Shown: piece after piece, positions 142-201 of the stretch
How the letters are laid out: each line of letters starts with the position of its first letter
Numbering within the stretch: the stretch's first letter is position 1
DNA from: Escherichia coli
Lineage (GTDB): Bacteria > Pseudomonadota > Gammaproteobacteria > Enterobacterales > Enterobacteriaceae
NCBI RefSeq assembly: GCF_003334385.1
Contig: NZ_QOWN01000234.1
Reading direction: 5' to 3' (one strand)
DNA length: 201 bases
Position numbers and translations under genes: made by a program
The notes under the pieces: generated by a model
Seen by the model: only the letters and a program-made list of their open reading frames with translations
What the model was told of the DNA's origin: nothing
Database searches by the model: none

Positions 142-167
142 TGGATCAAGCTGAAAATTGAAACACT

Positions 168-185
168 GAACAACGAAAGTTGTTC
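168..185 (+). other. Short hairpin with a GNRA (GAAA) tetraloop in the pre-23S spacer; probable structural or processing element of the rRNA precursor.
   Basis: Seen in sequence: GAACAAC (168-174) pairs with GTTGTTC (179-185), 7 perfect Watson-Crick bp, with loop GAAA (175-178). A T167:G186 wobble could extend it. Function is inferred. Confidence 0.55.
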
Positions 186-201
186 GTGAGTCTCTCAAAT
201 T

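Follow-up and report, generated by a model that had tools for sequence, protein, structure and literature searches.

A conserved stem with a variable loop in the spacer upstream of 23S rRNA is probably a structural side arm of the pre-23S leader in Enterobacterales

In the precursor of 16S rRNA the leader and trailer sequences pair to form an essential helix, which is interrupted by the leader helices hA and hB of about 10 bp; deletion of hA/hB causes a modest loss of activity together with fidelity defects (PMC10250234). Variable leader-leader and trailer-trailer helices are described as general in prokaryotes, 23S rRNA included (Gemler et al., 2024, PMC11404451). For pre-23S rRNA the leader-trailer helix is quoted as 27 bp, and a second boxB-boxA-boxC set exists before the 23S gene (Warner, Bundschuh and Fredrick, 2023, PMC10250234). 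RNase III cuts within the classical stem at -7/+7, and rnc mutants retain up to about 100 extra nucleotides at both ends of 23S (PMC8708148). A further line of work concerns StyR-44, which was cloned from S. Typhi as a 109-nt RNA with seven copies and described as "part of ribosomal operon"; a northern signal of about 109 nt, regulated with growth phase, was obtained in S. Typhi and in E. coli, and its authors allowed that it might be a metastable maturation intermediate or a by-product of rRNA maturation (PMC2943607). The RNA sYJ118, which is identical to StyR-44, was reported to be induced by tigecycline and ampicillin in Salmonella, with the by-product caveat repeated (PMC3511261).

We analysed a stretch of 201 nt of Escherichia coli DNA (the window), for which an earlier note had pointed to a GNRA-capped hairpin at positions 168-185 and had placed it in the spacer of an rRNA precursor. 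This placement is correct. E. coli rrn spacers match the window with 100% identity, and a match is found in 5425 of 5426 complete genomes, at a median of seven places per genome; ten of the 37,958 window matches in E. coli genomes are plasmid-borne and not chromosomal. At locus L001, between clpB and kgtP, the annotated order is 16S, tRNA-Glu, 23S, 5S, and the 23S gene begins at window coordinate 247, which makes the window part of the tRNA-Glu to 23S internal transcribed spacer of an E. coli rrn operon and puts the hairpin 79 to 62 nt ahead of the mature 5' end of 23S. All of the features described below lie on the plus strand. Positions 1-53 hold the 3' two-thirds of the gene for tRNA-Glu(UUC), which is cut by the start of the window (annotated end at L001 3553; Rfam tRNA match at 1-50). 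As the gene is truncated, ARAGORN reported no tRNA in the window, and its identity was taken from Rfam and the annotation. We note that CTTTCAC at 10-16, in the region of the tRNA-Glu anticodon loop, is complementary to GTGAAAG at 69-75 in the spacer.

Several elements surround the hairpin. Positions 87-126 form a hairpin before the spacer boxA, with 16-nt arms that are 88% complementary and a C(UUCG)G cap; it fits the position of boxB 5' of boxA, and our label boxB-like refers to that position alone. The K-12 alignment shows that rrnG differs in the apical half of this hairpin, with compensated arms, and that the Ile/Ala operons carry a wholly different hairpin at the same site. The sequence UGCUCUUUAAAAA at 127-139 is named spacer boxA, the NusB/NusE site of the rrn antitermination complex, from its match to the boxA consensus UGCUCUUUAACAA; it is invariant in seven of seven K-12 operons. 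Beyond the window, at coordinates of about 207-226 (L001 3707-3726), the leader has a second small arm that directly precedes the classical RNase III stem; K-12 rrnG and rrnD have an arm 9 nt shorter than that of the remaining five operons. In Glu-type spacers only, TTTGAGA at 116-122 is perfectly complementary to TCTCAAA at 193-199. This pairing would compete with the 3' arm of the boxB-like hairpin and with the leader-trailer helix Y described below; the complementarity is probably due to chance, and we set it aside as an alternative pairing because the Ile/Ala spacers have no 5' partner. Weak Rfam matches to SNORD24, ceN33, mascRNA and others, with E of 0.1-0.8, were dismissed as chance.

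An inverted-repeat search confirms the proposed stem and loop. GAACAAC (168-174) and GTTGTTC (179-185) form a perfect 7-bp inverted repeat across a 4-nt gap, GAAA (175-178), and this is the sole perfect 7-bp hairpin with a loop of 3-8 nt in the 201-nt window. The loop is a GNRA tetraloop by definition, with the closing pair C174-G179. The stem extends outward through the pairs C164-G188, A165-U187 and C166-G186, with U167 bulged, to give an arm at 164-188 with three basal pairs, the bulge, the 7-bp stem and the GAAA loop, 10 bp in total, which is delimited by the inverted repeat, the predicted fold and covariation. Folding energies of -10.3 kcal/mol and -7.4 kcal/mol are predicted for 164-188 and 168-185, respectively. 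When the window was shuffled 5000 times with its dinucleotide composition preserved, 7.5% of the shuffles contained a perfect 7-bp hairpin with a loop of 3-8 nt; the figure fell to 1.5% for a 4-nt loop and to 0.08% for a GNRA loop. Judged from this single sequence the hairpin is mildly unusual, which is suggestive and not compelling; that it is maintained is seen from the comparative evidence.

The first of these frequencies is what a chance palindrome would have in its favor, and a transcription signal, such as a terminator or pause hairpin with no role as RNA, would belong to the same class of explanation. We regard such an origin as very improbable, since it is already contradicted by the comparative data set out below, which show stem covariation and an arm in all 54 listed variants. 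Furthermore, a scan for terminator- and promoter-like sites, the terminator part of which covered L001 3450-3800, found none, and the operon is antiterminated. The hairpin was rejected as an intrinsic terminator, with two G-C pairs among its seven inner pairs and a U-run that begins 12 nt downstream of the stem. The arm itself was also rejected as an RNase III substrate, as such a substrate needs near-continuous duplex over about two helical turns (around 20 bp) and the E. coli arm has 10 bp.

The hairpin is the inner stem-loop of the Rfam StyR-44 element and is in this sense already catalogued. The match to RF01830 occupies 131-201 of the window, where it is truncated at its 3' side and scores 81.5 bits; on the complete spacer the full model matches L001 3631-3739 (window coordinates 131-239, ending 8 nt before 23S) with 124.9 bits and E = 7.8e-22. 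Both scores exceed the gathering score of 54. The portion <<<-<<<<<<<____>>>>>>>>>> of the RF01830 consensus structure aligns to window 164-188 with zero non-canonical pairs. Each of the seven K-12 operons, whether of the Glu or the Ile/Ala type, has the StyR-44 block ahead of its 23S gene, in agreement with PMC2943607; by this alignment the hairpin lies in a block common to the two types and is not specific to Glu-type spacers.

To describe variation within E. coli we aligned the seven operons of K-12 MG1655 and counted variants in all complete E. coli genomes. As the earlier note had suggested, K-12 rrnB has GAGA in the loop, the other six K-12 operons having GAAA; in rrnH and rrnG, C174 is replaced by U, giving a U.G closing pair. 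Counting used 45-nt megablast queries centred on the loop, in which loop variants cannot cross-match because every 28-nt seed must span the loop. The form CAAC-GAAA is found in 20,480 operon copies, CAAC-GAGA in 11,866, CAAU-GAAA in 4,256 and CAAU-GAGA in one; the loops GGAA, AAAA and GAAG account for 23, two and zero copies, respectively. An allele with 8 bp, GAAUAGUC-GAAA-GAUUAUUC, occurs in 306 operon copies of 165 genomes and also in E. albertii, and combines a compensated change of C-G to U-A with one extra pair. Together the eight queried variants cover 36,934 of about 37,958 copies (97.3%), all but two of them GNRA-capped, while about 2.7% (about 1,000) of the E. coli operon copies fall outside all eight. 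Such counts of copies do not represent independent events; for this reason, and because two of the four possible loop transitions keep the GNRA class, these figures are modest evidence for a constraint on the loop.

For a broader comparison we scanned one genome per species across Enterobacterales, with an anchor placed solely in the conserved upstream block CTTTAANAATNTGGANCAAGCTG. This returned at least 120 loci, a sample outside which Salmonella, Klebsiella and many other genera fall. Among the loci listed, the segment between the conserved flanks, ending in GAAAAUUGAAAC on one side and starting with GAGUCUCUCAA on the other, is hypervariable, and each of the 54 distinct segments (54 of 54, from 16 genera) forms a single hairpin at this site. 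The arms of these listed variants are 21-60 nt long with 8-21 bp, and have z-scores of -2.4 to -6.8 against shuffled sequences. GNRA loops occur in seven of the 54, all among the shortest forms: GAAA or GAGA in Escherichia and Superficieibacter, GAAA on a different stem in Pseudenterobacter, and GCGA on another stem in Enterobacter sp. EA-1. The remaining variants include loops of GCUCA in Enterobacter cloacae, UUUAU or UUUAAU in E. asburiae, GUGACA in Citrobacter amalonaticus, ACCGA or GCCGA in Photorhabdus, and GAAU or GAAC in Xenorhabdus, as well as a UAG loop. The expectation that the loop would vary only within the GNRA class holds within E. coli, for at least 97% of copies, and fails across Enterobacterales, where 47 of the 54 listed variants have other loops. 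GCUCA, UUUAU, ACCGA and others are loops of the very kind that the earlier note had named as speaking against its proposal, and they are found at the family level.

Two further observations were made in the course of this comparison. In Enterobacter sp. EA-1 (CP025776.1; L062, L063), two of the five operons are without a 'TC' in the otherwise invariant GAGTCTCTCAA and have 1-nt indels nearby, which may be assembly errors rather than real variants. The longer arms carry apical motifs of their own. Those of Citrobacter, Silvania and Shimwellia have the apical loop CCGUAAUA, in which the long arms of Escherichia sp. ESNIH1 and Enterobacter sp. JUb54 also end, the loop being identical over differing stems (examples are L023-L025, L026, L044, L073, L077 and L125-L128). 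The arms of Yersinia, Serratia, Rahnella and Lonsdalea have in common an apical UCCGUAG or UCCGUGC (L049, L055, L086, L092, L105). These conserved apical motifs of the long arms are absent from the short E. coli arm.

The stem behaves differently from the loop. Thirty short and medium forms were aligned with MAFFT and the E. coli pairing was imposed on the alignment; in this alignment (A1) a 10-nt 3' anchor, which lies outside the counted pairs, was set to AGTCTCTCAA in all rows, from which the originals differ by at most two bases. Across these 30 variants the paired fraction of stem cells is 79.7%; shuffles give 62.8%, and sliding the partner strand gives 30-53%. Cells in which both partners have changed number 56 against an expectation of 23.6, and eight of the ten stem pairs show changes on both sides. 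None of 500 shuffles reaches the observed paired fraction, number of double-change cells or covariation score, and RNAalifold recovers the same stem register. The covariation that had been suggested as a check on the stem is thus present. Selection maintains the stem; conservation of the element does not extend to its GNRA loop.

The loop might nevertheless be functional in its own right: through a specific tertiary contact or recognition by a protein, it could direct how the precursor folds or is processed. The E. coli data lend themselves to this explanation, with GAAA, GAGA or GGAA in 36,932 of about 37,958 operon copies and the two transitions that break the GNRA class nearly absent (AAAA in two copies, GAAG in none). 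GNRA loops also recur on three unrelated stems, with GAAA in Escherichia and in Pseudenterobacter and GCGA in Enterobacter sp. EA-1, and are found in three of about nine listed lineages with 4-nt loops, compared with 1/32 by chance. However, the same enrichment is also expected from selection for the stability of a short stem, and GAGA in E. coli may be one old change that was spread by descent and gene conversion. The 47 listed variants with non-GNRA loops, which are of 3-14 nt, include close relatives in Enterobacter and Citrobacter with identical flanks; moreover, arm length varies threefold, so that the loop cannot hold a fixed place in space. We therefore consider a specific function of the GNRA loop unlikely, while accepting that its near-exclusive use as a cap within E. 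coli could reflect more than stability.

Consideration of the sequences on either side of the arm gives insight into its setting. The hairpin lies 25 nt 3' of spacer boxA, between the conserved leader strands GCUGAAAAUU (150-159) and GUCUCUC (191-197). Each of the two has its complement in the 23S-5S spacer, in segments next to each other, from which we predict that a leader-trailer duplex brackets mature 23S. When the E. coli leader was folded together with the trailer and the 3' end of 23S, 138-143, 146-148 and 150-159 pair with trailer nucleotides at about 34-55; we refer to 138-159 as the predicted leader strand of the distal leader-trailer helix X. Positions 191-197, the predicted leader strand of helix Y, pair with GAGAGAU of the 23S-5S spacer, 202-206 pair with GCGGA, and 227-254 contribute to helix H1 and the classical RNase III stem. 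Two side arms stay intramolecular, the hairpin at 164-188 and a small one at 211-223. Between helix X and the hairpin, GAAA at 160-163, inside a conserved UUGAAAC block, is a putative single-stranded junction linker, being unpaired in the leader-trailer co-folds and partly paired in the leader-only fold; it is conserved in most of the Enterobacterales variants among the matches listed.

The same architecture was predicted independently in 18 of 18 operons from about 15 species, among them Xenorhabdus, Photorhabdus, Yersinia, Providencia, Lonsdalea, Serratia symbiotica, Zophobihabitans and Ca. Steffania. In these predictions, that for E. coli included, the hairpin is placed between leader segments that pair with the trailer, which is the arrangement of a leader-leader helix. 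When the distal trailer alone was shuffled, in 11 operons, the energy rose by 13-32 kcal/mol (z of -4.2 to -9.9). The search pattern left three leader positions free, 137, 141 and 146. Position 146 and its trailer partner are T:A 13 times and A:T 14 times, the partner of 137 is G only when 137 is C, and at 141 A:T replaces C:G. In an alignment of strand X with the trailer strand, 85.1% of cells are paired, compared with 27-45% when the strands are slid, and there are 10 double-change cells against 5.4 expected (reached in 2 of 500 shuffles), a thin signal because the search pattern fixed most of the leader strand. The pairing region of the trailer was bounded by the co-fold, a sequence anchor, AGATT, recurring inside GAAGATTTT; as its boundaries come from the co-fold, the choice of region depends in part on complementarity, and the slide control is still valid. 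Helix Y has no covariation, which is uninformative either way because its two sides, the GAGUCUCUCAA block and the GAGAGA motif of the trailer, are both conserved across genera among the loci listed.

The trailers themselves vary in ways that we record here. Nucleotide 13 after the 23S 3' end, which faces leader U at about 230 and is close to the RNase III site, is A in rrnC (a U-A pair), G in rrnA and rrnE (U.G), and C in rrnB, rrnG, rrnD, rrnH and the operon of the window (a U/C mismatch; L001-L008). In Enterobacter cloacae DSM 26481, loci L011 and L012 have identical leaders and different trailers, GACAGACACTCAAATTTCAGCTC and GACAGATTTTCAGCC, both of which are predicted to pair.

Taken together, these thermodynamic predictions give a duplex that would run from the ends of mature 23S almost to boxA, with the hairpin protruding at a three-way junction; the shuffling and sliding controls and the covariation with the 23S-5S spacer support this arrangement. 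The predicted duplex of about 100 nt is much longer than 27 bp, and fits the extra nucleotides, about 100, that are kept in rnc mutants. We do not claim that an extended duplex is new.

An alternative arrangement would be a purely local fold of the leader. Positions 150-159 would pair with 197-205, the trailer would have no partner in the distal leader, and the leader-trailer helix would not extend past the classical 27 bp. The local fold is that of the Rfam consensus structure, whose outer helix has GCUGAAAAUU as its 5' strand and AAUUUUCGC (197-205) as its 3' strand, of which the window holds the start (197-201); in Enterobacteriaceae the helix forms with a probability of about 0.8-0.9 when the leader is folded alone, and the published helix has 27 bp (PMC10250234). 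Outside Enterobacteriaceae, however, this outer helix is poorly predicted, with a probability of 0.19-0.77 and with different partners, whereas pairing of the same strand with the trailer is predicted in all 18 operons, tracks changes in the leader, and is better with the real trailer than with shuffled ones by the margin given above. The hairpin forms everywhere when the leader is folded alone, and also forms in the leader-trailer folds. The local and leader-trailer folds share one strand, are compatible, and are best read as successive states; an exclusively local fold appears to us quite unlikely.

The identity of the region with StyR-44 and sYJ118 raises the question of whether it encodes a trans-acting small RNA, of which the hairpin would be a structural or stability module. 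The northern band of about 109 nt and its growth-phase regulation (PMC2943607) and the induction by tigecycline and ampicillin (PMC3511261) are what such an RNA would show, but both studies allow that rRNA maturation may generate the RNA as a by-product. On its 3' side StyR-44 ends at window coordinate 239 or -8, at the RNase III site, as the cut falls at -7/+7, and its 5' end is inside boxA. In addition, conservation coincides exactly with complementarity to the 23S-5S spacer, and the hairpin, the sole part free to meet a target, is hypervariable. We know of no target for this RNA, and have considerable doubt that a trans-acting role accounts for the hairpin.

We propose that in Enterobacterales the hairpin is, with fair probability, an architectural leader-leader side arm of pre-23S rRNA, and that its E. 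coli form, a minimal stem, depends on a stable tetraloop. The arm would fold as soon as it is transcribed, which would shorten the leader and bring strand X next to strand Y; in Enterobacteriaceae the local helix with 197-205 may hold strand X for a time. With boxA tethered to the NusB/E-modified polymerase, the leader would be held compact and clear of the nascent 23S. The trailer, emerging about 3 kb later, would then zip onto X and Y and complete the substrate of RNase III. On this model the existence of a stable arm would matter, and its sequence, length and loop would not; the arm of E. coli would have been reduced to a minimal 10 bp, its GNRA tetraloop serving mainly as a thermodynamic cap for the short stem. 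After the RNase III cut at -7, the leader fragment bearing the hairpin would persist for a while as the RNA of about 109 nt known as 'StyR-44'. The suggestion that the hairpin is a folding or processing determinant is plausible for a structural arm rather than for a GNRA recognition motif.

A more active role may be imagined, in which the arm is a quality-control module of 50S biogenesis and no passive spacer: the GNRA loop of E. coli would dock on the leader-trailer duplex or on a factor of assembly or processing, the CCGUAAUA and UCCGUAG loops of the long arms would do likewise, and the arm would act with the boxA-tethered polymerase to time formation of the duplex of about 100 nt. We give this extension a low probability. 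Returning to the architectural side arm, the hairpin alone matters little, as an ordinary and catalogued piece of the most studied rRNA operon. Our analysis provides a clear negative result, that the GNRA loop is not a conserved determinant, and a concrete picture of the pre-23S leader, in which a strand of about 110 nt from boxA appears to pair with the 23S-5S spacer and the hairpin is the main side arm. If confirmed, this picture would extend to 23S the boxA-tethering model for 16S, explain the existence of the 'small RNA' StyR-44, and offer a basis for designing the leaders of engineered or orthogonal ribosomes.

Comparison with known systems places the arm in a familiar class. It resembles hA and hB of pre-16S rRNA as a short leader helix of about 10 bp that would branch from a long leader-trailer helix downstream of boxA, and in both cases the short helices vary between genera while the leader-trailer helix is kept. 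In contrast to hA and hB, which belong to the 16S leader and have been studied by deletion, the 23S arm is known from sequence and prediction; the analogy also crosses from the 30S to the 50S subunit, and any effect on 50S assembly may differ. The arm likewise agrees with the class of variable local helices decorating a conserved leader-trailer pairing, for 23S as well, that Gemler et al. (2024, PMC11404451) describe. With boxB of the rrn and lambda nut sites it has in common that it is a short hairpin by boxA in an antiterminated transcript; 168-185 was rejected as boxB, since it lies in an arm 25 nt 3' of boxA and the hairpin on the 5' side is that at 87-126. It is like the GNRA hairpins of structured RNAs in its G-N-R-A loop, its C-G closing pair (U.G in some operons) and its regular stem, and unlike conserved GNRA motifs in that the GNRA class is here limited, among the loci listed, to Escherichia and a few relatives. 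Finally, StyR-44 is the same locus and the same RNA, and the first stem-loop of its model is this hairpin, with 3+7 bp and a bulge; the consensus loop of the family is uAAa and not GNRA, and where Rfam has a stand-alone 'gene' with a local fold, the evidence presented here favors an RNA that RNase III sets free as the leader strand of a leader-trailer duplex.
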